A stretch of 64,000 nt of DNA from Chaetodon trifascialis (taxonomy: Eukaryota): assembly GCF_039877785.1 (NCBI RefSeq), contig NC_092066.1, forward strand, positions 5,379,152 to 5,443,151, in the 5' to 3' direction. Below are positions 1,069-38,460 of this stretch, in pieces. A program made the translations under genes and the position numbers. Numbering within the stretch: the stretch's first letter is position 1; each line of letters begins with the position of its first letter. The notes below the pieces were generated by a model, which saw only the letters and a program-made list of their open reading frames with translations, did not search any database and was not told where the DNA came from.

Positions 1069-2039
1069 CAACACATTTAACACATTTTTCAGCAACAGAT
1101 ATCTCACCAGGCTTGAAGGCTGGAACAGGATCTGCATTGAAGTCGTAATGTTTCATCTGTATTCATGGTACCAGAAAAGGGGTGGAGACAGCCTTGTTAT
1201 TGCCAGATTTGTGCGATCGATTGCATTTAAAGATAAACCAAGATCAAAGAGTTAACTTTATTTGCCATTTGACGTTTAAAGGAAGTTCTGTGAGAGACCT
1301 TGTGCAGCTGTGAGACATCAATGGTAGACATGTAAACACAGCTTATCAGCTAATGCTTTTACAGCTCTGTTATCTACACTGAAGTGCTTCTGTTATATTG
1401 ACAATGAGCCACATCGAGTTCAATAAAAACTCATTAAGTCAATAAAACTATTCCCAGTACAGGACACTGAATTTTACTGGTTTCATCATAGAATTAATAG
1501 AAATCACATAATACTGTTGTAGAATGTTTCAAGCATTGGTTTTTATTTATTTATATTTTTTTAAATATTCCATTATTCCATGACTGGCATGTCTGGCAGT
1601 GTTTACAGGTATTATCCTTTTCCTTTTTCTACATATTCAGTTTGGAAAATTTTGCTTTGCTGATCAAAATTAATGATAATTTACAGGAAGAAAGAAATGG
1701 ATGCATAAAAATTAAAACAAGGCTCAACAAGGATGGAAAAAAATAAACTCTTATATAGGTGAAGAGATGGGTGTACATATGAATATTGAATTTGTTCTTG
1801 TAACTGTGAAAATACACTGAGACCAACTTAAAACAGTCAGATTTGTATGTGTACACATGTCCAATAAAGCTGATTCTGATTCTGAAATACATCTAAAAAG
1901 CACAATGACCAACAATATACAACGTTTGTATACAAATAAGTGTTTCTGAGTATTCAGTGTGCATTCTGTCTGCTCTGGGTCCACTTTATTTTCTCACTTT
2001 TCCAGTGTGAACCTTAGGAATTGGGAGTTAATGTTTTTA

Positions 2040-2116
2040 TAGCGATCGAGGAAACCAATAACAGGAGTTTCCGTGCAGCACTTGAAAGCAGCATCAGGCT
2101 GCTCTCAAGCTCCCAG
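2040..2116 (+). promoter_or_regulatory. putative promoter / non-coding first exon of ApoL-repeat gene 1 (ends at the GTGAGG donor at 2117)
   Basis: There is a CpG-containing stretch followed by a strong donor ...ctcccag|gtgaggcgg at 2116/2117. It lies upstream of the ATG-containing exon at 2296-2490. No TATA box was identified. Confidence 0.3.
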
Positions 2117-2295
2117 GTGAGGCGGACACGCCCTCCTGGGGACGACAGCACAGGTAGAGGAAATAAAAAAAACTGGATTCGCAGGTTTTACTATTGTTAG
2201 CAGGAGGCGTCTGCTTTCTGAAAAGCCGCAGGAGTGACAAGGAGCTGTGGGAAGTGTCTCATCTCTGCCCTAATTTTTCTTTTCCTTTTTTTCAG

Positions 2296-2490
2296 AGAGG
2301 CTCTTTAACTTCACATCTTAGTGTGTGAAAACAACAGTATCGACACGAGACGGACGGAAAGTCTCACTGGGGACTGTAACGTCTCAACAAAACAAAACAA
2401 ATCAACAACAACAGCAAACAATAACAACAACAGCGGAATAACCAAACACTAACGCCAAACAAGGGCGGACTGAGAGAAGCTAACTCAATG
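2296..2490 (+). CDS. 5' exon of ApoL-repeat gene 1: mostly 5'UTR, with the initiator ATG at 2488-2490 immediately followed by a GT donor (atg|gtgagt), phase 0
   Basis: The acceptor is ttttttcag|agaggc at 2295. The sequence ...gctaactcaATG|GTGAGTtaac follows the classic pattern of a first coding exon ending right after the ATG. Phase 0 joins cleanly to exon 4601-4672 (QKAALFGGMFKRSS...). An alternative in-frame ATG lies at 4595-4597. Confidence 0.45.
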
Positions 2491-4600
2491 GTGAGTTAAC
2501 GTTTAAAAACTAGCTAACGTTCGTGTTTAAAGCGCACCATAAACCGAACATGTCGGTTAATGTCTGTGAAAGTAACCGCGAATGACGATGGAAATGCACT
2601 GTTTGACAGGAGCGATACGACAACCTGGATCTGGACTTGGAGTGTGAAGGAGGAGGCGTAGCTGTGAGTGTTATCTGTCCGTTGTCTTTCATGAAAGTTT
2701 AGCCAGCTAACGTTAGTGTTGAAAGGTTTTTTGCGGAGCTGCATTTACAGTTTGCTGAAGTCAGTTAACGACCGTGGTTTACCGAATTTAACCGACCTAA
2801 CCTCAATCTGTGCGACGGAAACTCTCCATGTACAAACACACACTTACACAGTGAAGTCCAAAAGTATGTGCTCATGTTTTCTGTTGTGCTGGCGCATCGG
2901 ATTTAACATCTAACAATGACTATGAGGCTGAAAAGCTGACTCTCAGCTTTGAGTGCTCAGTGTACAAACCGTAGCTCTGTCATCACGGCCGGATTAACCG
3001 ACCAGCATGGTCCAGGGCGAAAATGTGCCACTGGGCCCCCATTAACCCCCCACACCAGATTAGATATATTAATATGAATATCCACAGCACAAGACTGCAT
3101 CAAGTTTGAGAAATTAAAGAATGAGGCTGGTTGCATAGGTTGTTTGCTGTAACTTGATGTTGGATTCAAATGGAGGGCAGGAAGTGAAAACCAATGGACG
3201 AGATGGAGGAAAGTTCGTAATCTGCTAGTTTAGAAGAAATTACAAGAGAAAACTGTACAGAAAATCAGAGAAAATGTTGGATGTGACCTTTATGTTATGA
3301 GGCAGCTGCTATTGAGGCAGTAGATATAACAACTACCTGCTCATTCAGATGTCATTCTGCTCTAGAAACCAAATCAAAGTATTCAAAAGTATGGAGGCAA
3401 ACAACTTTCTTGTTAGCCGTTGGGTGCACAACCTTGGTACCTAGGCTTTCCCCCTTATGGACAACAACTTTTGGTACTCGATCAAGCTCCTTATGGTGTC
3501 TCGGTTTGATCAAATTGACCAACCATAATCACAACACAGCTGCATTTTGAGTGTGTGTTGAAGTGCCTCCTATGCAGAAAATCACTTCCTGCCCTCCATC
3601 TGCAACTCGTGCCACAAAAAAGAGTGATGTGACGATATTTCAACAAATCCCATGAAAAGACCAAAACCAACAACGTGTTGCTACTGACTGACAAAAATCT
3701 TTAAACACAACTTACAAATATATAATTCGTTTTTTAATATAGGCTCAGAAATTTTCTAAAGCAGCTGGGCACTGCAGTTTTTAAAAAACGTTACTTAAGT
3801 TTGGGACTACTTTTAGCAGTGGATTAACACACTTTTTGTGTCAAGTGAGTATTTCCAGCTGCAGAGCAGTTTATGATGGACTGAGTCAAAATAGACTGAA
3901 GTATTCAAGTTATTGTGCTGAAGGAACATGTGCGTATTATTGAAGAGTCTTTCAGTTCAATGATCACAAACCAGTTGACTCATAACACACCTGAAGCTGC
4001 TGGAGCCCTTGAGTCCCTCCTACTTTATTTAATACTGTTATGTAAAGTACAGAAAGGGGTTTGTGTTCTACACTGTTTATTAGTTAAACCTGAAATAAAG
4101 CATCACAGTTTCTGTTTATATCAAGACGATCATCAAGAAACTTACAGACCTTTTTGTTTACAGCTGCATCCTTAGAAAAGGCTTTAAATGTTAAGCTAAA
4201 AAAGGCTAAAATCTGTTTACTGTCCAGTCTGATGTATTGTAGTGCTCCAGTCGTTCTTTAACAGGCTGATCAGTATTATGGTCAGTTTTCACAGAGCTAG
4301 AAACGCACCAATCACCCTAAATTTACTGTCGTCAAGGTTTCAAGTCCAGACATGAAACCAGCTTCAAGTCCGGACTTGAAACCTGGACCGTGGGATGTGA
4401 ACCAGTGAATGCGTCCGCTCATCCATAGAGTCATCTGTGAATTGTCGGTCATTCGAAGCATCTTTTCCGTGCAGGGGCAGATTGATGCTGCTGACTCACA
4501 GGTCATGGCAGCGAACGTTCACCCTCTGTTACTCGCTCACTCTCACTGAAGCTGCTCTGTCAGAACTGAATTAGTTTGCTCTTTTTCGCCCCTCATGCAG

Positions 4601-7600
4601 CAAAAAGCGGCGTTATTCGGTGGAATGTTTAAAAGATCCTCTAAGTCTGCAGAACCGTCTGTCCAAACTCAGGTGAGGTCATAGATTGTTTTTTAACTTC
4701 AATCATCAAATTCATTTGATAAGTTAATACACTGATCGAATGTCTCTTGAATGTTTCATTTAAGATGCTCACCTGTTCTCATGCTGTTCATGTGTGCAGT
4801 AATAAAATCACAATAACTGCTGCTTTGTGAAATCTGCAAATGATGGAATTACAGCATCTGATTCTGCGTCTGCTCACAAAGTTTGTGTGTTGATGTTACA
4901 GGACAGTTTATCAGCCAGCAGTGAACTTTCAAAGAGCAGCGACAGTCTGACTGACAACAGCGCCAAGGTGAGGCTCAGGAAACAGTCCTGGAAATTTAAT
5001 TTTTCTTTTCAAACTTTTTTTCTGGCCATCAGTAACCAAACTGAGGAGCTTTCATTGTGCTATGAATAATGGCAGTGTTTTTTAGCTTATAGACGGACGG
5101 ACTTATTTATTGATATTTCAGGAGAAAGGAGGCGTGTTCAAAGGAATGTTTAAGAAGACGACCAAAGCTGGCAAAGAGGGCCAACCGCAGGTGGGTAGTG
5201 AAATCATTAGTCGATTAATCAATCAGTTGATCAGCGAAAGATCAGTCAAGAGAAAGAAAAATGGGTCTCAGGTTGCCTTTATTTTGACAAATTTTTCATC
5301 ATTTTATTTTCATGTATTATTTATTTACCTTTATTACTCTGTATTTCTGAGTTTATGCTACTGAAAAATCTTTTGTAATCACTTGAATCTGTATTGTACC
5401 CATCAACAAAAATGGGAAGACGTAAAAGAAAAGTGATGGTCATAAAACAATGAAATATTTAAATATGTGTCTCCATAGTTGTTTTGAAATTCACAGATGA
5501 GATTCTAAAGCTTTTCAATCCTTTACAGGACAACCTGTCATTACCGAATCCTGAGCTGTCTGTCAGTACTGACAGTTTAACAGACAACAAGTCGTCAAAG
5601 GTGAGTTTACGTTCTGCTCTGTGAGATTTTTGGTTTTCTCACGTCAGTCTTTGAAAGTGAACCTTTTGTCTGCAGGAAAAGTCAGGCGTGTTCAGTGGGA
5701 TGCTCAAACGATCTCCTAAACCAGGACACGCCCGGAGGCCTTCACAGGTGAACCATTGATCTGCTATCTGCTGTCTGCTGTCAAAGATATGTCCAGAGAG
5801 TAAATCATCATGACATGTAAACTGTTGTGTTATTTCCTGACTGATCATCATGTGTTTCAGGATCTTTTGGAGAACGAGTTCACAGGCAGCAATGACAGTC
5901 CGTCTGAAAACACCACAACTAAAGTGAGTCTCATCAGCCAAACCAGTTTTTTAAATGCAAAAACATTCAAAAACACAAACAACTGGAAACAAATACAAAC
6001 GACGCTCACAAGCCTGTGATGCTGCTGGAGGCAGTTTGTTCTTAACTGTGATTTTAAAGCATTTTAAGCACTTTTTTTTTTTACTCTAAATGACCACAGA
6101 GCTCTTCCTTAGTGTTGACCAGCGACACATGTTGGTGATTCTGAATTGATTTAACCTCCAGTGGTTGTGTAGACCTCGACTCAGTGAATGGTGAGTTTGG
6201 GAAGGGTGTGATTTGTTTTTGTGGCTGTTTGGAAGCTGAACCTGCCTGCATCAGCAGTTTGGATGAGGTGCTGGCCAGCGTGTGAAGCACCAAATCCCCG
6301 TCTGTCCATCTGACAGCTGCATCGGTTCAATAGACAGAACAAAAGGTTTTATTTTCCGTTTCATTTCAGGGAACGTATAAGCAACTAATATGTGACTTTT
6401 TATTTTTCAGGAGTCAGGAGGGATGTTCAGCGGGATGTTTAAAAAATCCTCAAAGCCACTTGGAGCGAGGACACAGTCTCAGGTGAGAACTGCGCGTCTC
6501 ACTTTTACCTGTGTCACATTATTAATCGGTAACGAGTGTTTGTCTCTTGCCTTCAGGATGAGTTGTGGGCACCCTGCGAGCTCTCAGGCAGCAGCGACAA
6601 TCTCTCTGCAAACAGCAACACTAAGGTGGGTTGTGACAGGCAGCTGCTCATCTCCATATTCAGCCGCTGTGACTAACACTTGCTCCCTGTTTTCAGTCTA
6701 AGCTGATGGTACAGTCACATCACACCTCTGTCCTGCATGTATTTGCTCCATTGCTCATTCACTTCATCTAAAATCTGTGTTCAAGCATGCGTTTCTTGTT
6801 TTAGTGCAGCTTCCACACAGCCGCCTGTCAGTTTGCATCTACTGGTGTGAACACTGATGCACTTTGCTTTGAAACAGGAAAGTCATCATTCTTCCATATT
6901 TATTGATCAACCACATGACGATTGTGACATCACATCCTGTTTCAGGGCTGAGCGGTGTCACTGACCTGTGGGATAATGTGACTGTACCTTAATGCTGTTT
7001 GTATAGAGCTCAGCTCATTATATGCAGCGTCTGGGAAAGTGTGTTTCTGTGTTTGTTCTTGTGTGTGTTGGAAGGGCGAGGCAAACCTGCAAGTGTTAGC
7101 GTTTCAGAGGAGGCTACAAGCGGCTGAGTGAAGGGCGTACCGATCCATCGGACATTTGAAACCTAACTTCCTCCATTATGGGCAGAATTTCACAAAACCG
7201 TTCCATGTGACTTTCTTTTTTCCAGGAGTCAGGAGGGATGTTCAGTGGGATGTTTAAGAAATCCCCAAAGCCTTTCGGAGCGAGGACGCAGTCTCAGGTG
7301 AGAGCTCTGCACCTCATTTGTCTCACATATACCTGCGTTAGCTTATTAGGAGATGAAGGTAATAATCAGACGGGGATGTTTGCATCTCGCCTTCAGGATG
7401 ATTTGTCTGCACCTGGCGAGCTCTCAGGCAGCAGCGACAATCTTTCCGTGAACAGCAACACTAAGGTGAGGTCGTGAAAGCGGAGGAATTCCTTACTGAA
7501 CTCCTCCATTTTGGGCCAAATTTCCTTAAACCGCTTTGATGTAACTTTTGTTCCAGGAGGCAGGAGGGATTTTCAGTGGCATGTTTAAAAAAACCCCCAA

Positions 7601-8496
7601 ACCCTTTGGAGCAAGGACGCAGTCTCAGGTGAGAGTCATGGAGTATTGCTGCATCTTACAAATCTCACCGTTAAACCGTCTTACTACAAAGCAATTCAGC
7701 AGGATTAATGTTAATTACTCTGCATTTGTTTCTCGCCTTCAGGATGATTTGTCTGAACCCAGCGAGCTCTCAGGCAGCAACGATAATCTGTCTGAGAATA
7801 ACAACACGAAGGTGAGGTTTCTTAAAGCCAGCCACTGATTCTGCAGCATTAACCATGAGTAGTAAATGAGTGAATGTAGTGATTTGACATGTTGGCTTCA
7901 TATTATTTTCTCAGGAGAAAGGAGGAATCTTTAGTGGTGTGTTCAAAAAAAAAGGTGCCAAATCTCAGTCTCAGGTAAGACGGCTAAGTTTTTCAGACAG
8001 CTAACGAGTGTAAACAAACTGCCAGTCCGCCATTGTTGTTGTTGTTGTTGTTTTAGGCTCATTATACAAAGCAACAATGGGCATGCACAGACTGAGGTGA
8101 TGACACCATTGTTTCCCAGACACTCTATTTTACCTGTCCATGCACGCCTGCTCCTTTCTGCAAACAAAAACATGAAAGATAATCACATAAAAATCAAACA
8201 TGGCACCTTTAACGCTTGTTAAATGTTCGGTGTTTCGGTTGTTTTCTAGTTAACAGTTGCTCCATTTAATTTCTCACCTTTCTTGCTAATAGTCACCCAC
8301 AGTCTGCTTTGCTCCAGTGTCTGCAGTTCTTAAGTGAAATGTTGACATTTCACCTCGAAGTGAAGCTTCTGAGCGTCCTTTTTCGTCTTGGCTGTTGCTT
8401 TCTGACTGTGCGCTGTGTCCCTCTGTTCAGGATGATTTGTCCGTGGGTGGAGATCTCTCTGCCAGCAGCGACAGTCTCATAGAGAAGCCTTCAAAG
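4601..8496 (+). CDS. ApoL-repeat gene 1, N-terminal exon-pair repeat array: 14 short phase-0 exons in strict alternation of type A (basic, GMFKK-xPK) and type B (acidic, SSDSLSEN)
   Basis: Every exon has an AG acceptor and a GT donor, a length that is a multiple of 3, and no stop codon.
- 4601-4672: QKAALFGGMFKRSSKSAEPSVQTQ
- 4902-4967: DSLSASSELSKSSDSLTDNSAK
- 5122-5190: EKGGVFKGMFKKTTKAGKEGQPQ
- 5529-5600: DNLSLPNPELSVSTDSLTDNKSSK
- 5676-5747: EKSGVFSGMLKRSPKPGHARRPSQ
- 5861-5923: DLLENEFTGSNDSPSENTTTK
- 6411-6482: ESGGMFSGMFKKSSKPLGARTQSQ
- 6557-6625: DELWAPCELSGSSDNLSANSNTK
- 7226-7297: ESGGMFSGMFKKSPKPFGARTQSQ
- 7397-7465: DDLSAPGELSGSSDNLSVNSNTK
- 7557-7628: EAGGIFSGMFKKTPKPFGARTQSQ
- 7743-7811: DDLSEPSELSGSNDNLSENNNTK
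- 7915-7974: EKGGIFSGVFKKKGAKSQSQ
- 8431-8496: DDLSVGGDLSASSDSLIEKPSK. Confidence 0.75.
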
Positions 8497-8616
8497 GTGT
8501 GAGACGACGCTCACCGCACTGCACTCCTCTCGTCACGCATCACAGAAACTACTTTACACTGTTGGTCATGTTCTGAGATTAATGACATGCTGCTCATGTG
8601 TAATGTGTTGTAGCAG

Positions 8617-10459
8617 GATAAGGAAAAGGCTGAACGCTCGAGTGAGAATACCTCCACCACAGAGAAGCCCAAAGCCAAGCAGGTGAGTGACTGATCTCCT
8701 CTCTGTTGAAGTAAATCTGCTTTATATCAGCTGTGACGTTAAGGTGAGGGTTAGGGCTGTTTTTAAGTGGACTGCAGCAGTGTCTGTGTCATTTCAGAAC
8801 GGTTTCAGTGCGATGATGAAGAGCACCTTCTACACTGACAAACAGGTAAGAGCGGCAGACTGAACTCTTGACTTTTGCTGCATATCATCAGTTCATCTTC
8901 CCCATCACACGCCCCTGAAGCTAAATAGTATCTCAGTCAGAAACGCCTGAAAACAATAAAAGACAATGATGAAGTCGTCCACAGATGATTGTTGTACTAC
9001 TGTTGTTTATATTTTACTGTAAATTTGGCTCCTTGTGCAGGAGAAGAACCCAGATTCTGACCGTGAGGAGATATTGGACAGTGGAGAGGGCCAGCCCAGT
9101 CAGAAACAGGTTTGTGAGGTTTTCTCTCTGGGTTTCAGTCAGCAATTTATTTTCTTTATTGTTTCCCTATTTCATATTTTTTTTGTCTCTCGTTTGTTTT
9201 GTTTCACATTCAGAGCAAACTCGCTGAGACGATGACAAAGCTGAATCCGTTTCGATCCGCAAACAAGGTAAGGAAGGTTTAGATGTGATAGTGCTCGAGA
9301 GATAAGTAAAGTTTCCTTTGATGAATGGATGTATTGAAGGACCGTAACTGTGCAGCCTCTTTTATGTGTCGTTCATAAAATAATGATTTCTGTCTTCTCG
9401 CTGCAGCCGGAGAAGCAGGCGGGCTCAGACGACGAAGATCCACCTGCGAGCAGCGAGAAGTCATCAGGCAACAAACAGGTGCTTTGATATTTGCTCGTTC
9501 CTGTTTCATAAGTTTGAAGTCATGTTTGTTAGGGGTTGAAAAGCCTCTGCACATTGTTTGTCTGTTGTCAATAAAAAAGGAGAAGCTTGCTGCTTCCTCA
9601 CGTGTTGCTCTATTGCCAATCTTGTGAGTGTGTGTGGGCACATGGGTGAAACAGGCAGCGTGAAGTGCTTTGTTCTGCTTTGGTCAGAAAGTGGAGAGTC
9701 ATGAGCCAAAGGTTTCAGATTTACCCACAGGTTCTGTCCGTCGTCCAGCTTTACTTCTCTTATCTTGTGGATTTATTAGCGGACTCATTGTGGCTGATGG
9801 CAGACAAAGCAGATACTTATCTAAAATGCTGAAGCGTTCCCTTAAATCTTTCCACCTCAGAGCACCGTGGTTGGAGCCATGTCCAAACTCAATCTGTTCC
9901 GCTCTGCAAATAAAGTAACTATGCTCTTGATTGTGTTTGGTCGTGGTGGAGGTGTTGGTGAGATAGTCATGATGATGAGGTTTAAGGTGGCAGGAAGTCA
10001 TCATAGTGGTGGTGGGACTGTGGTAACGGTGATGGAGGTGATGTTTGTAGAATCTTTGGTTCGTTTTAATGAGTTGTAATGGTGTGCTGAAGACTTAAAG
10101 GACCATACCTGTGATTTCTCATGCTGCACCCAGTTTACTACAGAACACATGCACTTAACATCACAGCTAAACCCTGTGATGAATGACACAACTCAAACAG
10201 GTTTCAAGAGAGCAAATGGATTTCTGTAGTACATGGATTGTAGTTAAAGAGTTAAACTAGCAAAAATAACTTGGTACGGTCCTTTAATTGCTGCACAAGT
10301 AATCTGATTTTGGTCGATGCTGTTTAAATGCTAACGCTGAAGTCCTTCGTTCAGAAAGACACTGAAGACACAGAGACGCTCAAGGAGGATGGGAAACAAG
10401 TGGAAGAGAAACCGAAAATGGTCAGTCTATTTTTTGCATCACTCATGAGTCATCAGTGA

Positions 10460-13500: not shown

Positions 13501-16500
13501 ATCTCTCTTTGCTCACTGGAGTGCTCCTCTGTGTGACCTTATTTTGGCGAGGTTGCTAAGTTAGCATAGCTGAAATTTCAAATACTGCCTTTTATGAGCA
13601 CGGCATGAGTTTGTCACCCGGTTACTGTTTTGAAGGGAAGAAGTTATCAGTTATTATGCCCTTTTTTGTCATTTTTAAGATGTTAAAAATGATCACTCTT
13701 ACCTGGTGTTGCTTTTGGCGGCCTGTTTTAATTTTAGTCTTAGTCTAGTCTTTGTGTCAAGCTGTCATTTTAGTTTTTATTAGTTTTAGTCACGTTCATA
13801 CTCTTTTTAGTCTAGTTTCAGTCGACTTAAAGTCTGAGTACTTTAGTCTTATTTTAGTCAGAGTTATCCGGGACTATTTTAGTCTAGTTTTAGTTGATGA
13901 AAATTGTATTTTACTCTCTTTTTAGTAATGCAATTCTATTTAACCCAGTCAATATAGTATAAGTACCTAGTAATATAGACGAAACCAAAATTATCTTTTA
14001 GCCAAACCCATTTCACAATTCAAACAAGGTTGTCTTATTATATATTGTTACCTTATAGAGTCAAGAATACACCCATTCCAGACACCAAGACGCTCTGATG
14101 TGAATTTACAACATATTTATTTTACCAAGCAAAGCCGGCTGGCCATCGGTCCTGTTCTCTGTGTCGGTTGTCTGTCGTTAACATTAACCTACCGCAGCTG
14201 CATCTTCTAAATAACGCCGTGAGTGGGAACTAATGCCGTGATGTCACCTGCGACTGCGCAGTGCGACCTGAAGCAGCCCCTGAAGTGAGACACAGGAAAC
14301 AGAAATACTGCAAAATAATAAGAACAACGCGACTAAACGAGACGAAATAACGTTAGAACATTTTGTCTCGTCTTGTTTTAGGCAACTAAAATAAAGAGAC
14401 ATTTTAGCAGAGTTTTTATTTTGTAAACCACATTTAGTTTCATTTTTATTCGTCATCAATATTTCATTATATATTTAGTTATAGTTATCGCCACATGACC
14501 AGCATTTACGTTGCGTCTCGTCTCCTTTTCGTCACACGATAAAGGTTCGTTGACAACGATATTTAGTCAGAATTTTCGTTGACCAAAGCAGCACTACTCC
14601 TACCTCCAGATCAGCTCTGCCTCTGAATAATGGTTGTGTTGCTGTCTGGACTGTATGGGAACCAATATGAGCCTCAAAGCATGTTTTGATAAAGCTATTG
14701 AAAGTGCTTTAACTGTGTGTTTGTGTTCATTGTTTTAGGGCAAAGTTGTAAAGAAGCCTGCGCAGGACGGAGCTGCAGGCAACACAGCAGAGGTAGAGAA
14801 ACAGATGATCTTCAGGAAGTCTTTCTTTCTTTCCTTCAGTCACCTCGCATTACATTTAGAGCGACTTTTAACCTTTTCCCTCCCAGTCTGTGTCTGTGTA
14901 TTTATCCACCAGTCTGACATGTTGCCGTCTTACTCACTGTGGTTCAGGATTATAAAAGGCCTGTTTCAGTCACCCAACCCATCCCTGAAAACAACCCCTT
15001 TCTGTTGTTTGTCTCCAGGGTCTCCGCTCAGCTCCCAGCAGAGACTATTATAGTTGACATGTTTTTTTTTCCTCCACTCTCAACATGAAACCCACCCCCA
15101 CACCTTGGCTCCACCACACGGTCTTTGTGCATGCATGTGTGGAAGATAAGAGGAGGAGGTTGCAATGTGCCCAGACTTGTTTCTCTGCTTCCCTTTTCAG
15201 CGTGTCCATGGAAGATTTAAGCCCTTTGTACTTCTGCAAAAACAGCAGAAATAAGTCAGTTCAGTCAGAATCCTTTTCCCCTCACTTCCTCCTCTTTATC
15301 TCACCATATACAGTGTAAAAAGTGAAACTATGTGACGCTTGATGAGTTCATTTGACTTCTCGCTCTTTTATATGTCTCTCAGCCTTTTTGTCCTGCTGAC
15401 GTACACTTCAGCTGTAGATCCAGACTTTTGGCTTCACACAGGAAAGCATCTTGATGTTAGTTTTGGATTTTTAAGCAGTATTTTTCCTGTTGTTTCAGAA
15501 TGAAGGTGCAAACAGGTCCTTGTTTGACCAACTGGAAGACTTCCGTATTGATCCAACCCAGCCTGAAGACAGACAGGTTTGGCCTCTGAGAGCAAAATAT
15601 GTCACCATAGTATCATTTCAGCATAATCTGACACATTATCAACTATCTCTCCAACAAATAATCCAAGTTTTAGCTTTAGTGCTCATTCATTGGGTAATGT
15701 AAGAAAACTGCAGGTGGCCAGAATGGGTTCAGAACAGATGATGACGATATTTTTCTGTTACGATAGATTCAGAGTCTCTCTATTTTCTTTGTGTATGTTA
15801 CTTAAATGTTGTCAGTTATTATTGTTTCATGCACAGCGTTATGATGTGTTATATTAGTGTATTGTGATGACCAGAGTGAGTGTGAACTGTGTACAACCCA
15901 TGAAGAAAAGCTGCTAATATACAAAAATCAGGATCTTGATTGAATCTCACGGTGTCTTTCAGGATGTGGAGGATCTTATGGAGTGGTGGAACACAGTGGA
16001 AGGTAAATCATAAATAAAATGTTTTTCACTTTGTTTGGCTTTCTTTGGGCTGTGTTTTAAGAGTGGAAGGCCAGTTTTTTAGTTTAACCTTGAACCACTT
16101 ACACTGTGTGACCAAAATATGTGGACGTGCCTGTTTACATACCCTAGTGTGCTGTTTTTCTTGGTTTGGACCCCTACGTTCCTATTAAAGGAAATCTTAA
16201 TGCTGCAGCATACATTTATATTTTAGAAAATAGTGTTCCTCGTTATAAAGTTTCAACATGATGGTGCTTCTGTGCACAAAGCCAGGCCCATAGAGAAATG
16301 GTTTAGTGGCCTGCTCAGAGCCTTGACCTCAACCCCATCCAACACCTTTGGGATGAACTTGAACGCAGACTGCGAGCCAGACTTTATCTCTCCAATGTCA
16401 GTGTCTATTAAAACAGCATATTCGTGCCCATACTTGTGGAATAATGCACTGGATGTTTTGTGTCCACATACTTTTGGCCATATAATATAAGTAGGATTGT

Positions 16501-16587
16501 GAGAAAGCTAATATCGTTCTTTATTACTCCTTCAGTTTGGGAAGACACGCCTCAAGATGATGACATGACGGAAAAAGAAGAGGCGAA
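8617..16587 (+). CDS. ApoL-repeat gene 1, middle exons: additional repeat modules and linker exons joining the array to the ApoL domain
   Basis: Exons carry AG...GT boundaries and are in frame, phase 0 unless noted.
- 8617-8682: DKEKAERSSENTSTTEKPKAKQ
- 8798-8845: NGFSAMMKSTFYTDKQ
- 9041-9109: EKNPDSDREEILDSGEGQPSQKQ
- 9214-9267: SKLAETMTKLNPFRSANK
- 9407-9478: PEKQAGSDDEDPPASSEKSSGNKQ
- 9861-9914: STVVGAMSKLNLFRSANK
- 10355-10420: KDTEDTETLKEDGKQVEEKPKM
- 10688-10765: VKGNMIQRESKERSETPSVPPRPTEE (weak donor gttcac; an in-frame stop lies 15 nt downstream)
- 10875-10934: EMKSISTYSKVKPRGTEGHQ
- 11146-11226: DNKDVNSREKKAKAAESPEVPVRPSDE
- 11320-11364: ELSRAERRALQKHHQ
- 11592-11663: SQSDDEGLKNEESAEAKGRDESKT
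- 12259-12309: TKVKKHHNPFMPRAAAK
- 12542-12634: APSDDEGLGEEDDPSSKEEQKDEEGKDKTEE
- 12769-12819: TKVKKPKRHNPFMPRVK
- 14739-14792: GKVVKKPAQDGAAGNTAE
- 15499-15576: NEGANRSLFDQLEDFRIDPTQPEDRQ
- 15963-16002: DVEDLMEWWNTVE, ends in phase 1
- 16536-16587: (V)WEDTPQDDDMTEKEEA, ends in phase 2
The 10688-10765 and 25956-26036 exons of the two genes are clear paralogs. Confidence 0.6.
10461..10508. repeat. (CA)n microsatellite
   Basis: A perfect dinucleotide run, with a (GT)n partner at about 10637-10678 on the other side of a short unique segment. Both lie in an intron of gene 1. Confidence 0.95.
13690..14600. repeat. putative non-autonomous DNA-transposon relic, rich in TTTTAGTC/TAGTCT words and with internal palindromes
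   Basis: The words ttagtct/ttttagtc recur densely between 13730 and 13900. A palindromic segment lies at 14330-14390 (cgactaaacgagacgaaataacgttagaacattttgtctcgtc). The element sits within the intron between exons 12819 and 14739. The family is unknown. Confidence 0.3.
16090..16490 (+). mobile_element. internally deleted Tc1/mariner (Tc1-like) DNA transposon relic inside an intron of gene 1
   Basis: The translation contains the Tc1 transposase C-terminal motifs (FQHDGASVHKA...PAQSLDLNPIQHLWDELERRLRARLYLSNVSV, spread over frames because of frameshifts). Inverted terminal repeats are gtgaccaaaatatgtggacgtg (about 16108) and tgtccacatacttttggcc (about 16461). Confidence 0.6.
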
Positions 16588-29500: not shown

Positions 29501-32500
29501 TCAAAGGTGAGCTCAGCAGTGTTCGTATGACAGCAGCATCGTCAGTGTTATCACATGCAGCAGTCACTGACCCTGCAAATCTGCCTGATGTCAGCAGGAG
29601 AAAGGAGGATTTTTCAGCGGGATCCTCCGGAAGTCTCCCAAGATTCCCGGAGAGGGAACACCTGGGCAGGTAAAAACGGTTTTGCACATGTTTTAGATGC
29701 TCAGTAACAAAACAAACAGATGGAGTTCGGCGTGTGAGTACATGAAAGATCAGAGTAATCGAAGTGGTCAGCGACGGGGATCTTCACTTTCTGTCAAACC
29801 GCTGAGACTTTGTTGTTTATGTTTGTTTCAGGATAAACAGCAGCTGCAAACGGACCCATCAGACAGTAAAGAGACTGAGAACAACAGCACGAACGTAAGG
29901 AACCCAGAGTGACTGAGTTAAGGAGGAGGCTGACTCTTATATCCACTTTGAACACTCCTCTTTTCCTGCTAACGACTGACTTCAAGCCTGATGTGTTAAT
30001 AGAAGCTGATTTGTAGCTTTACGTATTTCTTTCCTCCTTCCTGTATTTCCTGTACCAATAACTGAAAGAAAGAAAAGGTTTTTGCGAGCGAGTTCTTCTC
30101 TTCTTCACGTTATCAGGAGAAAGGAGGCGTTTTCAGCGGCATGTTCAAGAAATCTCCCAAACTGTCAGAGAAACCCCGACTGGAGGAGGTAAAGATTTAT
30201 AATCTGAGCATCTGCAGAATGGATGAAGTCATCTGAAAAGTAACTAAAGCTCTCAGACAAATGTAGTGGAGTAAGGTTACATTTCTATTACTCTAGTAAA
30301 GTACAAGTACCTTGAATTTTGTACTTAAGTACAGTCTGAATTGTGGCTCACGGCCTCCTCAGCCTTCCTGTCAATCTTCAGTCTTCATACTCTCACAGGT
30401 GCAGTAACTCTTGTGTTGCTCGTGTTGTGTTCAGGGTGCAGAGTCGTTGCACGGCGAGCTCTCCATTAGCTCCGACAGCCTGTCGGAGAACAAGGTGAGT
30501 CCTCATGATGGAAGAATATCTGCAGCTCCGGAGGAGGATCGGCCTCCTGATGCTGAAATGAAAGAAAAGAGGTCGTCGGTTTGCCTCAATGTGTTTTCTG
30601 CTCTCTGTAGGAGAAAGGCAGTTTGTTCAGCGGACTCCGGAGAAAGACTCCCAAAGCAGCCGGAGAGGTACGGCTCCTCAAACACGAGCAGGTGTCATGA
30701 GCATGACCACATGCAGCGCAGCCAGTTCGATGGATGTTCTTGAATGTGCTCACAGGCTGTAACATGAGTCATTGAAGTATTGAAGCATCTTCTGTTTCCT
30801 GGAGCTGCTCTCTGTTTCTGACTGTTTTATTCTCATTTCAGGAGAATCTGTCGGCACAGAAAGATCTGTCAGCCAGTAACGACAGTCTGTCTGAGGCTGC
30901 CAACACCAAGGTCAGCTTTTGCTGTAAAAGGAAGATTTGATTTCATTGTGTACATTTTCTATATTTCTTCATTAATTCGTTGTTGTCTTTCTGATTGTAG
31001 TAGTATGACGTGTCTCCATGTGTTTCCACATATGTTCTATGTCTGGAAGACTGAATTTAACTGTGACGTGTAAAATAAATGACTGTGTTTCAGGAGAAAG
31101 GAGGCGCCTTCAGTGGAATATTCAAGAAGTCGACCAGGCTTGCAGACAGTCCTCCCACAGAGGAAGTAAGACGTCCTCTCTGTTTGTCCCATCCAGTCTT
31201 CCTTTAATATTCTTAAACAGGTGTCAAGTGTCTCATAGGTAGTTCCTTTTAATCTCAGGTGTAAAAGAGCAGTCAGGGAGCTGGGCTCAGTGTTAATGAT
31301 GAAACATACTGTGGCTCTGACTGTTGTCGTCTTTCCTCAGGACAAACAGCCACCAGGCGATGAGCTCTCAGGTAGCAGTGAAGCTCCGTCTGAGAGCAGC
31401 GCCAAGGTGAGTTTTTCTTTTCTGCTTCATTCAGAAAACGGTCCTGAATAACTTCAGCTGAAGAGAGAGCACCCACTGCATGAACATGTGTGTTTCAGGA
31501 AAAAGGAGGAATATTTAGTGGAATATTTAAGAAGGCTCCAAAACCTGCAGACGCTGCTCAACCGGAGGAGGTAAAACTGTCATTTACAGCAAAGTCGACC
31601 TGTTTCATTACCTGTTTGTTGGTGGAAAATTAGGAACAAAAACTCAAGTGATTAGACGTTGGTGCAGATTCAGTATTTGAGCATTTTTTTTAACATTTTC
31701 ACATGATCGTCATGTATCCCATGACCATCTGTTATCAAGATATACTAATGCAAAACCTTTTATCACTTCTCACAGGACGAGTCTCCTGACAAAGAGCTCT
31801 CAACCAGCAGCGAAAATCTATGTGAGAACAAACAGGTGAGCGAGTTTAAGACGATGAATGACTTTGTTTCGTAAATGCTTCACACTCTCGCAGCTCATCC
31901 TGAAGCCTTTTTCTTGTCTGTCTCATCAGGAGAAAGGTGGACGGCTGCTCAGCGGACTCCTGAAAAAGACTCCCAAAGCGTCTGGAGAAAAGACGGAGTC
32001 GCAGGTGAGTTAGTGTTTACAGGACGTGAGATCAGTTTCCAAACCTGCACACAAATTCACCTGTTTCATAAAACATCAACGGGCCTGTTTCAGGACAGAG
32101 AGGCTCAGAGCGAACTGTCGGCCAGCAACGACGACCTGTCTGAGGGCAGCAGCACCAAGGTGAGCAGCGCAGCAACAAAAAGCTCCAGGTACACGTCTTC
32201 TGAGGGAGCGTTCACTGACACCCTGCTCTCTTTCAGGAGAAAAATATCTTTAGCAACATGTTTAAGAAGCCGCAGAAAGCAGCAGAGGGTGCTGCAGCAG
32301 ACAAGGTACCGAGATTTGATTCGGCCCATTAAATCAGCGTTATTTTAGTAAGTGTAGTGGATTTTTACTGTCGTCTGGTCTGAATGCAGGAGCTGGAGGA
32401 GAACAGTAAAGATCGGTTATCAGGCAGCTGTGAAAATCTGTCCGACGCCGCCCCGAAGGTACTTCAGCATCAAAAGAAAGCCTCTTCTTCTCTGTTTTTC

Positions 32501-35423
32501 TGTGTGCTGCTGTCACATGAACACGGACTGAAACCTGATCACAGAGATCAGATTGAGGATGAGATGATATCTGTGTGTTCAACTAGAACAGATTACAAAT
32601 ACAGATAGGCACATCCTCGAGTGTGAGTGCGTCAGTTTGAGTCAGGTTGAGCTGACTTCCTTTGGGAGCGGCAGTAACTTCTGACTCTTGATTCACTCTG
32701 AATGTGTTCACTTGAGAAAATTGACAAAGATCTGTGTTTCAGGAGAAAAAAGGAGGCCTGGCTGGCATCTTCAAAAGGTCATCCAGCATCGATAACCTTT
32801 TCGATGAGGTGAGTGTCGGCCCTGTGCGGCCTCTGTTACGCCTGACGATAACGTCACTTTGACATGAATGAAATGAAACCGTGTTAATGGCTTTTTATCC
32901 CTGGTCTTAAATCAGGAGAAAGGTGGGCTGTTCAGTGGACTTCAGAGGAAGAAAACACCCAAAGCGTCTGGAGATGAAGCAGCTGCAGAGGTGAGTTTTA
33001 TGTTACGCTGCGAGCATCACTGTCTGTGGTTATCGTCCGCATTAATACAACGTCCATTGCTATTTTTTCAGGACAAAGACGACCAGAAGGAGCTGATGGC
33101 AAGTAATGACAGTCTGTCTGAAAACAACACCACCAAGGTACAGTGTTTATTTAAATTCACTTTAACATGCAGCAGACTTTCTCATGTACATAAAAAACAC
33201 ATTTTAGAATATTTTAGTTTGTTTTTGCTTCAGTTTGCACTTAAAAAATGAACATTTCGACATGCCAGTGCTGTTTTGTTTTATTTTTAACTGTGTTCAA
33301 TGTCTGTTTGCAGGAGAAAAGTATTTTCAGTGGCATGTTCAAGAAGACTTCCAAACCAGCAGAGGAGACGACAGCAGACGAGGTACAGTAATGACTCCTT
33401 CACATGAAGTTTATACTTTTGCTCTTAGTTTTGCTCTTTCTTATGTTTTATTTTCGGTTCAGGAATTAAACGCCGGTGATGATCAGATGTTCTCTGCCAG
33501 TTGTGAAAATCTGTTAGAAGCGACCACATCAAAGGTGTGAATGATGTCCGACCATCACACACAGCCTGTTTTTCTCTGTTCTGCCACTTACGATTGATTG
33601 TTTACGTGTGGATGTTTCGTCCGTTTCAGGAGAAAACTGGAGGACTGGCAGGGATCTTCAAGAAGTCTCCCAAGCCGGCTCCACGCTCCATTGTTACTAA
33701 GGTGACCGGAGGAGCTCGCTTTGTTTGATCTCATTTCTGTTTTTTATGGTAAAATTCTTCAGAAATAACCTTCAGCAAGTTGAAAAAAAAGTTCCTTTTT
33801 GTCCTCCAGGATCCGCTGAGCGACTCAAAGGAGCTGTCCGCCAGCTGCGACAGCCTCGTAGAAACCGCTGAGGTGAGACCTGAAGTCTGTGGATGCACTT
33901 GGTGACACTCAGAACAGAAAGCACGAGAAAGAAACGCTCAGCACACTTAAACCCTGCTGGACCAGCACTACCAGGAGACCTCGTGATTTAGACATTAGCC
34001 GCCACATCTGTACTTTATGTGGTGCATTCACACAAAATAAATTAAATCTGTATTTCAGTTTTATACTTTGTCCTCCAAGTACGACGTTGAAGCCCTGCGT
34101 GGCATCAGTGTTTCATTAGACGAGCGTCCATTCAGCAGCCACATTAATGACACAGTTTAGGGTTGTTTTTCCGACTTTCTTCATGTGTTACAAGCATAAA
34201 TACATGTTTGCAGCTCGTTCACATCAAGCAACAGCTGCTTTGCGGCTGTGCTTTAATGCGACAAACTGTTGTTGTCTGTCGTCGCTCATTTCAAATCTCA
34301 GCGAAGCCGCTGCTGCTCAACATGCAGCGAGCTGCGATCAAATCTCGTGTTCGTTCAGTTCAGCTTTAACGTCTGTTTCCTGACAACAGAAAACAGATGT
34401 TAAAAGAGCATTTGAAGCTCAGTTTGCAGAGCCTTCCTCTCTCCTGATCCTCTGCCAGCAAACATATAAGACAGATTGTCGGTGCCATTATTTACAGCTT
34501 TACATTTACTTTTTAACATCCCAGTTGGTTTTTGAGCTGCGACCCAGATGTTTCAGTGTCAGTAGCTGCGTTTCCATTACAGTTGTTCGCAAAATAAAAG
34601 CGATATTTCTGAAATTTCGACAAAGTTCAAGTGCTACTTGCAGGTGTTTCCATTGAACGGTGTTTTGCGAACTAACCGAAATTCTCGTAAATTCTCGGCC
34701 GTCCCGCGAGACTGGAAGATGGCCGAAAGCGTTATGCGTCTCGGTACACTGATCTCAGGAGCTGGTACGGCTGTTGCTGTCCTTATTATGAACAGAAGGC
34801 GGAGGCAACGTATAACTGTTCAAAGGCGAAGCCCTTATGTGTGGCAGCGGCCACGAATAAGGGATTTCTGGGAGAAGATTGTAAATGAGGAATTCACAGA
34901 CGAACTGTGGATACAACATTTTCGGATGACCCGGGCCACGTTCAACGAGCTTTGCGATGTTCTTGAACCTCTTGTGGCACCAGATGCGACATGTAAATGC
35001 GAAAAAAGTGTTTCCATTACACTTTTGCGATACGCTTTTATATTGACACGTCTGAAAAACCACCTCATGAGAGCGTAAAAATGTTTTTGCGATATTTGAG
35101 AGGATTTTCGAAATATAGGTGTTTCCATTACCAGTATTTTATTGCGATATTTAGGTTTTGCGCATTTCTAGGGGTAATGGAAACGCAGCTACTGACTCCA
35201 AACACTGAAATTTATTTCATTTTATTTTGCAGGAGGATCAACTGTTTACTAGTCAGGATAATCTGTTGGAAGCTGTGAGCGCCTCAAAGGTGAGTCTTGT
35301 AGAGTGTATTATTATTCTGTCAGCTCGTTCGGACTTTCAATGAATGCTTCATGTTTTATCTGTTGAACAGGAGAAAAAAGGAGGGTTTGGTGGAATTTTC
35401 AGGAGGACGCCCAAAACACATCA
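26594..35423 (+). CDS. ApoL-repeat gene 2, exon-pair repeat array: about 33 short phase-0 exons, mostly alternating type A (EKGG-FSG-FKK-PK) and type B (D--ELS-S-DSLSEN--K)
   Basis: All exons have AG/GT boundaries and lengths that are multiples of 3.
- 26594-26659: SDPTVLTGMFRRSQKGQTPSFT
- 26980-27057: SYLIDSCAEEEKSDDAPAKQAPGSKP
- 27138-27188: SALKGVMKGLQFKSSPK
- 28120-28224: ASVEPSPGG...EKNAEPKQ (AAG acceptor)
- 28332-28403: DFGGLIAGMFRKTPKEKTPSPALT
- 28484-28552: VSKADSDPEDAEEAEEKTSEQSH
- 28922-28990: EKGGFFSGILKKPNKAPEETPAQ
- 29098-29157: ENLSVSSELSASSDSLSENK
- 29284-29355: EKGGIFSGLFKKSPKAAEAAQTDE
- 29444-29506: DQQSLHDSLSGSNDNLSENSK
- 29598-29669: EKGGFFSGILRKSPKIPGEGTPGQ
- 29832-29894: DKQQLQTDPSDSKETENNSTN
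- 30117-30188: EKGGVFSGMFKKSPKLSEKPRLEE
- 30435-30494: GAESLHGELSISSDSLSENK
- 30611-30667: EKGSLFSGLRRKTPKAAGE
- 30842-30910: ENLSAQKDLSASNDSLSEAANTK
- 31094-31165: EKGGAFSGIFKKSTRLADSPPTEE
- 31341-31406: DKQPPGDELSGSSEAPSESSAK
- 31499-31570: EKGGIFSGIFKKAPKPADAAQPEE
- 31776-31835: DESPDKELSTSSENLCENKQ
- 31930-32004: EKGGRLLSGLLKKTPKASGEKTESQ
- 32094-32159: DREAQSELSASNDDLSEGSSTK
- 32237-32305: EKNIFSNMFKKPQKAAEGAAADK
- 32390-32458: ELEENSKDRLSGSCENLSDAAPK
- 32743-32808: EKKGGLAGIFKRSSSIDNLFDE
- 32916-32990: EKGGLFSGLQRKKTPKASGDEAAAE
- 33072-33137: DKDDQKELMASNDSLSENNTTK
- 33314-33382: EKSIFSGMFKKTSKPAEETTADE
- 33463-33534: ELNAGDDQMFSASCENLLEATTSK
- 33630-33701: EKTGGLAGIFKKSPKPAPRSIVTK
- 33810-33872: DPLSDSKELSASCDSLVETAE
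- 35233-35289: EDQLFTSQDNLLEAVSASK
- 35370-35423: EKKGGFGGIFRRTPKTHQ. Confidence 0.7.
34551..35209. mobile_element. non-autonomous Harbinger (PIF/Harbinger superfamily) miniature DNA transposon in an intron of gene 2, carrying a remnant of the HARBI1-like transposase N-terminus
   Basis: Terminal inverted repeats are tttcagtgtcagtagctgcgtttccattac (34551-34580) and gtaatggaaacgcagctactgactccaaacactgaaa (35173-35209). Sub-terminal gtgtttccatta(c) repeats occur at 34644, 35010, 35121 and 35170. The internal ORF 34638-35078 encodes ...RRRRQRITVQRRSPYVWQRPRIRDFWEKIVNEEFTDELWIQHFRMTRATFNELCDVLEPLVAPDATC..., the conserved N-terminal region of Harbinger/HARBI1-type transposases. The DDE core is absent. 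Confidence 0.65.
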
Positions 35424-35640
35424 GGTACGATTTTCGAGAGCGACAGACCAAGTGAGGGGAGCAGTCACATTCTTGAACACAAATAAAGAACACAGTTAGC
35501 AGCGTGATGTGAAATGATGCTAATAACAGGTATAAATGCAGAGAGCTAGCATTTTGAGTGCATTAACTGATCCCTATAAACTCCTGAATCCTGCACAGCT
35601 GTTAAACATTTATCTCTGCTGCCAATCTCTTCTTCTGCAG

Positions 35641-38059: not shown

Positions 38060-38460
38060 TGGCTCATCTCTCTCTGTGTCTCTTTCCCTCGCGCTCTCTC
38101 TCTCTCTCCCTCTGTGTGTTTCTCTCACTCCCTCTCTCTCTCTGTTTGTGTCTCTCTGTCTGTCTCGTTCTCTCTTGCTTCCCCCCCTTTCTGTGTGTGT
38201 CTCTCTCCCTCCTTCCCTCCCTCCCCCACTGTGTCTCTCTCTCCCTGTGTGTCTACCTCTCTCTTTCTGTGTGTGTGTGTCTCTGTCTCTCCCCCTCTCC
38301 ACCTCCCTCCCTCCCTGTGTCCTTCTCTCCCTGTGTGTCTCTCTCTCCCTCCTTCCCTCCCTCCCTCTCTGTGTCTCTCTCTCTCTTTTTCTGTGTGTGT
38401 CTGTCTCTGTCTCTGTCTCTCCCTCTCCCTCTTCGCCTCCCTCCCCTTGAGGTTTCTGCC
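38060..38460. repeat. TC-rich simple/low-complexity sequence ((CT)n, (CTCC)n and (CTGT)n variants) filling the intron that splits the ApoL domain of gene 2
   Basis: About 400 nt are almost entirely C/T, with interspersed tgtg. This generates spurious long ORFs on both strands (38036-38536 +, 38045-38632 -). Confidence 0.9.

Follow-up and report, generated by a model that had tools for sequence, protein, structure and literature searches.

An intronic inverted-repeat element of Chaetodon trifascialis and its two-gene PIF/Harbinger relatives

What is the inverted-repeat element that lies in an intron of a Chaetodon trifascialis gene, and how did it come to be short? The element is in a 64-kb stretch of contig NC_092066.1 (GCF_039877785.1, positions 5,379,152 to 5,443,151 of the forward strand). 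We call this whole stretch the window, and positions without a locus label are those of the window. A preliminary description had proposed, from the letters alone, a Harbinger-family miniature transposon with a fossil open reading frame (ORF) for the N-terminal part of a transposase. We are highly confident that the element is a teleost PIF/Harbinger DNA transposon reduced to a non-autonomous copy by the loss of its middle, and that it stands in sense orientation in an intron of a host gene made of mini-exons.

Judged by sequence comparison, we consider the assignment to PIF/Harbinger secure, because the relatives of this element show the two-gene convergent layout, with a DDE_Tnp_4 transposase and a Myb-like partner, that defines the superfamily (PMC2836001). 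The relatives are transposon copies at other loci, with several fish assemblies among the sources. The termini of the window copy recur in L001, L004, L005, L006, L008, and L135, and the termini of L134 are a related variant, so further copies with the same terminal inverted repeats (TIRs) do exist. The best autonomous-like relative is L006, from Epinephelus. It has the left end, a transposase gene with one intron, and a convergent gene for a Myb_DNA-bind_4 protein of 290 amino acids (aa) (PF13837; 7092-8710, minus strand). In L006, a single ORF (4785-5516) continues from the N-terminus (MDALRFHGF…RPRIRDFWERIVNEEFTDELWIQNFRMTRDTFNELC) into the DDE domain, and the left part of the window element aligns to positions 4633-5068. 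L005 is a 1.8-kb copy from Scomber that corresponds to both parts of the window element: its positions 5844-6284 align with the left 430 bp and 7477-7667 with the right 200 bp. (Between these two parts, L005 contains the frameshifted remains of a transposase and, oppositely oriented, a fragment of Myb_DNA-bind_4, E = 1.4e-9.) Finally, L134 is a complete two-gene Harbinger element of 3.7 kb (1089-4833) from a more diverged sister lineage. Its TIRs are at 1089-1112 and 4810-4833, its transposase exons are on the plus strand, and its Myb-like ORFs are on the minus strand (4198-4578). It has its own motif variant (GTTTCCATCCA) and an AGT/AGT duplication, and it should be a useful reference for reconstructing an autonomous element.

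Among the shorter relatives, L001 is 83.5% identical to window 34558-35194 over 673 columns. The same locus was sampled in three sequencing runs, as L001, L002, and L003. L129, L130, L131, L132, L133, and L135 are diverged or truncated copies with no usable pairs of ends. The parts of the window element and its surroundings are:

33873-35232, plus strand: host intron in which the element lies, flanked by the phase-0 mini-exons 33811-33872 and 35233-35289
34552-34560, unstranded: outer arm tttcagtgt (pairing with acactgaaa at 35201-35209), host flank that is common to no other copy
34558-34560, unstranded: GTC, left outer conserved triplet: a half-site on the left of a preferred palindromic target (GWC), or else the TIR's outermost 3 bp
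34561-34563, unstranded: AGT, candidate left copy of a 3-bp target-site duplication, from family comparison
34564-34580, plus strand: left TIR core, AGCTGCGTTTCCATTAC, 100% complementary to 35174-35190 and conserved in L001, L004, L005, L006, and L008
34581-34718, plus strand: 5' subterminal region and 5' untranslated region (UTR) of the transposase, with a GTGTTTCCATTG motif (34644-34655); alignable with L005 5844-6000 and L006 4633-4793
34719-34986, plus strand: fossil transposase N-terminus of about 90 codons (MAESV…LVAPD), with matches that are 66-90% identical and a tblastn match from L006 (E = 7e-41)
34987-34993, unstranded: junction of the internal deletion, a short zone of microhomology, from alignments to L005, L006, and the short copies
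34994-35173, plus strand: 3' subterminal region, aligned at 88.7% with L005 7477-7667, and with two GTGTTTCCATTA motifs spaced by 111 bp (35008-35019, 35119-35130)
35174-35190, minus strand: right TIR core, from its complementarity with the left core and its conservation in relatives
35191-35193, unstranded: ACT, candidate right copy of the 3-bp duplication, whose middle base differs from the left copy
35194-35196, unstranded: GAC, right outer conserved triplet, either a target half-site or the outermost TIR bases

The ORF links the element to its transposase. An ORF of 146 codons, as first described, is present at 34638-35078, and it starts at TTG under the bacterial table. The start that is homologous to those of the relatives is the ATG at 34719, which leaves 119 codons, and only about codons 1-90 are derived from the transposase. 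Beyond the junction, the tail of the ORF (…CEKSVSITLLRYAFILTRLKNHLMRA) is in-frame read-through into 3' non-coding sequence. In a collection of 5.8 billion proteins, the ORF matches teleost-type proteins: P0003 (90% identity), P0001 (71%), and P0002 (66%), which comes from Scomber scombrus and is named "ALP1-like, partial". A search with P0002 leads on to P0008 from Epinephelus coioides and P0012 and P0013 from Oryzias melastigma ("ALP1-like"). P0008 and P0012 contain DDE_Tnp_4 (PF13359; E = 1.2e-27 and E = 1.1e-30), and they also match Plant_tran. ("ALP1-like" is an automatic label on transposon ORFs.) The best matches are thus Harbinger transposases and not members of an unrelated family. 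The term "HARBI1-like" that was first applied to the ORF holds loosely, in the sense of a Harbinger transposase, and does not hold in the sense of the domesticated HARBI1 gene.

A broader search gave the same picture. In an index-free HMMER search of 1.84 billion cluster representatives (E ≤ 1e-3), there were 266 matches. Ten long representatives were scanned: DDE_Tnp_4 lies downstream of the matched segment in eight of them, one has no Pfam match, and one is a chimeric gene model that includes a Laminin G domain. (P0036 and P0044, near the top of this search, were rejected as unrelated tandem-repeat proteins in which many weak matches add up.) With tblastn, the N-terminus of the L006 transposase matches window 34740-35036 (67% identity over 104 aa, E = 7e-41), and no other part of the L006 transposase or Myb protein matches anywhere in the window. 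There is no DDE or Myb sequence in the window, and this copy cannot encode the transposase or its Myb partner. A missing Myb gene is what one would expect of a non-autonomous copy.

We then examined the ends. The arms of the inverted repeat (34558-34580 and 35174-35196; GTCAGTAGCTGCGTTTCCATTAC and GTAATGGAAACGCAGCTACTGAC) are 23 nucleotides each and are 100% complementary. A 21-mer core of the TIR occurs at only two sites in the window, and no such pair is expected (100 shuffles). On the comparison with relatives, the element ends either at 34558 and 35196 or at 34564 and 35190, which corresponds to TIRs of 17-23 bp and an element of 627-639 bp (about 630 bp). The inverted-repeat element first described is therefore real, with different limits: it does not end at 34551 and 35209 and is not 659 bp long. 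The TIRs of 30-37 bp that had been proposed are too long, and we rejected them. Their outer part, which pairs 34552-34560 with 35201-35209, is host flank, because the similarity among five independent copies in unrelated flanks stops exactly at the 23-bp block. The outer pairing also requires a 7-bp indel, and it extends over 7 bp strictly outside of the block, or 9 bp if the GT is borrowed from the block. Empirically, pairings of at least 7 bp occur at about 2% of random sites in the window and pairings of at least 9 bp at 0.07-0.2%. The flanking 7-9-bp pairing may be due to chance (0.07-2%), may be a small local palindrome, or may be a sign that the family prefers palindromic DNA. The uninterrupted site would amount to a small, hairpin-like palindrome (tttcagtgt…acactgaaa).

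Within these limits, the element has short repeated motifs, as the preliminary description had noticed. There are five occurrences of GTGTTTCCATTA in the window with at most one mismatch, as compared to 0.55 expected, and all five are within the element. In terms of the GTTTCCATT/GTGTTTCCATTA motif, there is one copy in each TIR and there are plus-strand copies at 34644, 35008, and 35119. All five GTTTCCATT motifs are retained in every short copy. Across copies, 52 of the 54 motif columns are invariant, as compared to 211 of 297 other non-coding columns (Fisher p = 1.3e-5). The spacing of 111 bp between the motifs at the right end recurs in the diverged L134, together with a co-varying variant of the motif (GTTTCCATC). 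The part of the element with these right-end motifs corresponds to the stretch upstream of the convergent Myb-like gene in the full elements. We predict that the GTTTCCATT motifs are cis sites that are needed for mobilisation, and they are probably bound by the Myb-like protein as in Harbinger3_DR (PMC2836001).

What was lost from the middle? Window 34560-34993 is collinear with the left end, the 5' UTR, and the first ~90 codons of the full transposase, while the final ~200 bp of the full element are collinear with window 34988-35191. Where the two stretches overlap, there is partial microhomology over 6-7 bp. Missing at the junction are the entire helix-turn-helix (HTH)/DDE core, the intergenic region, and the Myb-like gene; the left end persists over ~430 bp and the right end over ~200 bp. 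The earlier proposal that the DDE core was removed by an internal deletion is thus borne out, since both ends are collinear with longer elements.

Other short copies were deleted differently. Relative to the window copy, L001 has about 12 more codons before its 5' breakpoint, L004 has about 35 more, and L008 has its own pattern. The 3' breakpoints also differ, within a zone of ~50 bp. Among the four short copies (the window copy, L001, L004, and L008), no other copy has the junction of the window copy, and each has its own breakpoints. Therefore, the deletions are independent and do not indicate a clonal family of MITEs (miniature inverted-repeat transposable elements). We also compared the N-terminal codons between copies. 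The ratio of nonsynonymous to synonymous substitution rates (dN/dS) lies at 0.12-0.27 in most pairs, and pairs with L005 give about 0.6. Therefore, most of the divergence accrued in functional, coding-competent transposase lineages before each deletion.

These results bear on how this copy became short. One quite plausible account, although not the one that we lean towards, is that a full-length element inserted here and was then shortened in place, and that this copy never moved as a short element. That every copy has a unique junction fits a one-off deletion per locus. In cut-and-paste elements, the donor locus is where interrupted gap repair takes place, which also fits shortening in place, for example after an attempted excision. 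But the 23-bp arms are still identical and the ORF is still open, which implies that the copy is not old or heavily decayed. Also, the short copies all keep exactly the motif-bearing ends, which is the pattern expected from selection for mobility.

We think it unlikely that the element belongs to a true amplified MITE family, in which a single deletion was followed by multiplication of a ~630-bp derivative with the same junction. The small size, the perfect TIRs, and the retention of all five cis motifs are what such a family would have, and there are short relatives of 660-760 bp in other samples. In the formal sense of a short element (<800 bp) with TIRs and no functional transposase, the element, at 627-639 bp, is of the MITE type. 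It is not of that type in the sense of many near-identical copies with one junction, which were not found in the 64-kb window or among the relatives (the source genome is outside this scope). No junction is common to any two of the four short copies, and the apparent recurrence of L001, L002, and L003 is one locus sampled three times. The window contains just one copy of the element and no second copy or fragment. And dN/dS well below 1 between short copies points to separate descent from coding master elements. So, the amplification that the term "miniature transposon family" implies is not seen. Nor is there a partner in the window for the ectopic recombination that had been suggested within the repeat array of the host gene, because the window has no second copy or fragment.

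We then considered the target site of this non-autonomous Harbinger copy. PIF/Harbinger elements make 3-bp target-site duplications (TSDs), require both genes, and have extended palindromic targets, of 9 bp in plants and 15 bp in vertebrates (PMC2836001). The target of zebrafish Harbinger3_DR is AAACACCWGGTCTTT (PMC3016246). In the five complete copies of the family, the 3-mers next to AGCTGCG… are:

L001: left ATT, right ATT
L005: left ATA, right ATA
L134: left AGT, right AGT
Window copy: left AGT, right ACT
L008: left TAT, right AGT

Three of these are perfect pairs, one pair agrees at two of the three bases, and one agrees at one of three. If the ends of the element are instead placed at the outside of the block, then matching 3-mers are found in none of the five complete copies. 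The most telling case is L005, whose ATA/ATA is a direct repeat in which the inverted symmetry is broken at all three positions. There is a GWC-like triplet at nine left ends and five right ends in the family, and in most copies these triplets flank the candidate TSD on both sides; the sites are too few to distinguish a target preference from outer bases of the TIR. Together, the ends are suggestive of a palindromic target, GWC-ANT-GWC, with ANT as the duplicated 3 bp in its middle; the pattern would be imperfect in the window copy. This model parallels the extended palindromic targets that are documented for PIF/Harbinger (PMC2836001, PMC3016246). A search for a paralogous empty site among the array's other introns gave none, and the flanks in the intron are unique in the window.

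Several observations weigh against a PIF/Harbinger copy with a target of this kind. First, the window copy has no duplication of the canonical TWA, which the preliminary description had expected, in any register, and there is none among the 3-mers of the relatives. Second, as the preliminary description had also noticed, the window copy has no clean TSD: it has AGT on one side and ACT on the other. Third, the target model rests on five complete copies, and given ANT, the chance of at least three matches at the centre base is about 0.1. Fourth, we looked for a full right end in L006 and did not find it. Fifth, the ORF alone has no significant match in Pfam, and a precomputed DUF8040 label was not reproduced by a local Pfam search. 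The ORF alone also has no significant match in the PDB. The lack of matches in Pfam and the PDB is because those libraries model the catalytic core, which the ORF lacks.

It is very improbable that the inverted repeat and the ORF reflect chance, a host exon, or a domesticated HARBI1-type gene rather than a transposon remnant: the ORF has no Pfam match of its own and has the same orientation as the host gene, but shuffling predicts no such repeats, homologous copies with the same ends are found amid unrelated flanks within several fish assemblies, the related elements are two-gene Harbingers, the region is between well-formed splice sites of unrelated phase-0 exons, and no Rfam family or tRNA overlaps it. 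We also rejected a DNA transposon of another superfamily, given the DDE_Tnp_4 and Myb architecture of the relatives, and a tRNA- or non-coding-RNA-derived element, given the lack of Rfam or tRNA matches.

The parent element has a TIR, a transposase gene with one intron (an N-terminal DUF8040/HTH region and a DDE_Tnp_4 core), a convergent Myb/SANT-like gene, and another TIR. One internal deletion, either before or after this copy inserted here, removed everything from about codon 90 of the transposase through to ~50-60 bp upstream of the start of the Myb gene, probably by interrupted gap repair or by microhomology-mediated joining. In the intact system, the Myb-like protein would bind the motifs and recruit the transposase, and integration would be into palindromic GWC-ANT-GWC sites, with duplication of the central 3 bp (ANT). 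Given its perfect TIRs and intact motifs, we predict that the window copy could be mobilised in trans if an autonomous relative is active in the genome.

A tentative extension, which as a whole we consider improbable, is that these elements represent a teleost lineage with an undescribed target specificity, GWC-ANT-GWC (duplicating ANT instead of the TWA of plants or the CWG centre of AAACACCWGGTCTTT), and whose deletion derivatives are constrained to keep five GTTTCCATT motifs at fixed spacing as docking sites for Myb. More speculatively, the N-terminal peptide of ~90 codons, which is kept open in several derivatives, might be a trans-dominant inhibitor that titrates the Myb-like partner.

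The closest described system that we compared is zebrafish Harbinger3_DR with its derivative Harbinger3N_DR, which are also PIF/Harbinger elements (Sinzelle et al. 2008, to the extent that PMC3016246 and PMC2836001 describe that work in citing it). As described there, Harbinger3_DR, like the family of the window element, is a vertebrate two-gene cut-and-paste element with a DDE_Tnp_4 transposase and a Myb-like DNA-binding protein, and Harbinger3N_DR, like the window copy, arose by deletion, is non-autonomous, and still has TIRs and subterminal repeats. On the target model above, a further likeness would be the duplication of 3 bp in the middle of an extended palindrome. Relative to those descriptions, the window family seems to differ in its TIR (AGCTGCGTTTCCATTAC), and it differs in its apparent target (GWC-ANT-GWC, not AAACACCWGGTCTTT), and in the ~90 transposase codons that the window copy retains.

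The plant PIF/Pong elements with their Tourist MITEs (such as mPing) offer another comparison. In both cases, a short element arises by internal deletion of an autonomous parent with two ORFs, and is mobilised in trans (for the window copy, this is only a prediction). On the target model above, a 3-bp TSD and a preference for extended palindromic targets (PMC2836001) would be common to both as well. However, the plant TSD is TTA/TAA, whereas the window copy and its relatives lack TWA; and in mPing, a single junction is common to the copies of a high-copy amplified family, which is not seen for the window element. As for HARBI1 and the "ALP1-like" models from NCBI, they share the DDE_Tnp_4 fold family and the N-terminal region. 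But HARBI1 is a host gene present in a single copy, has an intact DDE core, and lacks TIRs, while the window element is a TIR-flanked intronic remnant without the core.

The element is a routine member of a known transposon superfamily and is of little importance beyond annotation. It should be masked as an intronic remnant of a DNA transposon to keep its ORF from being annotated as a gene. Among database "proteins", several are such miscalls. One of them, P0094, is a 401-aa protein in which the Harbinger N-terminal fragment is joined to a Laminin G domain; it is probably a chimeric gene model from an intronic or exonised copy of this transposon family. Only two threads are mildly novel: the non-TWA target pattern, which hints at a target site unlike those published for Harbinger elements, and the copies themselves, which form a small natural deletion series that marks the cis sequences at the ends that this Harbinger family seems to need.

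We also scanned other collections for copies of the ends. In metagenome contigs, a 14-mer (TGCGTTTCCATTAC) gave 120 loci, but this pattern is too short: all of them were chance matches and none aligned to the element. A 28-mer from the left end had no matches in collections of viral and prokaryotic genome contigs. The surroundings of L133 (GCA_977065575.1) are rich in transposons, with a Tc1/mariner-type transposase (HTH_Tnp_Tc3_2 and DDE_3) and a reverse-transcriptase fragment (8199-9169, minus strand, and 16013-16543, plus strand).

Finally, the location in intron 33873-35232 is as originally described. The donor is gag|gtgaga (GT at 33873), the acceptor is ttttgcag| (AG at 35231-35232), and there are phase-0 mini-exons on either side. 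In a protein search, 82 aa of joined mini-exons had only three marginal matches (E of at least 3e-3), none with a source name. The host gene (31103-35434, plus strand) has recurring short phase-0 exons that encode EK(K/T)GG(L/F/A)(A/G/S)GIF(K/R)(K/R)… at 31103, 32752, 33639, and 35380. These EK.GG..GIFKK modules alternate with acidic or serine-rich mini-exons, and the introns between the exons are dissimilar to each other. Further downstream, at 38067-38432, the window has a long imperfect (TC)n or CT-rich microsatellite with a higher-order period of 86 bp, which coincides with a peak in GC and AT skew at 38-40 kb.

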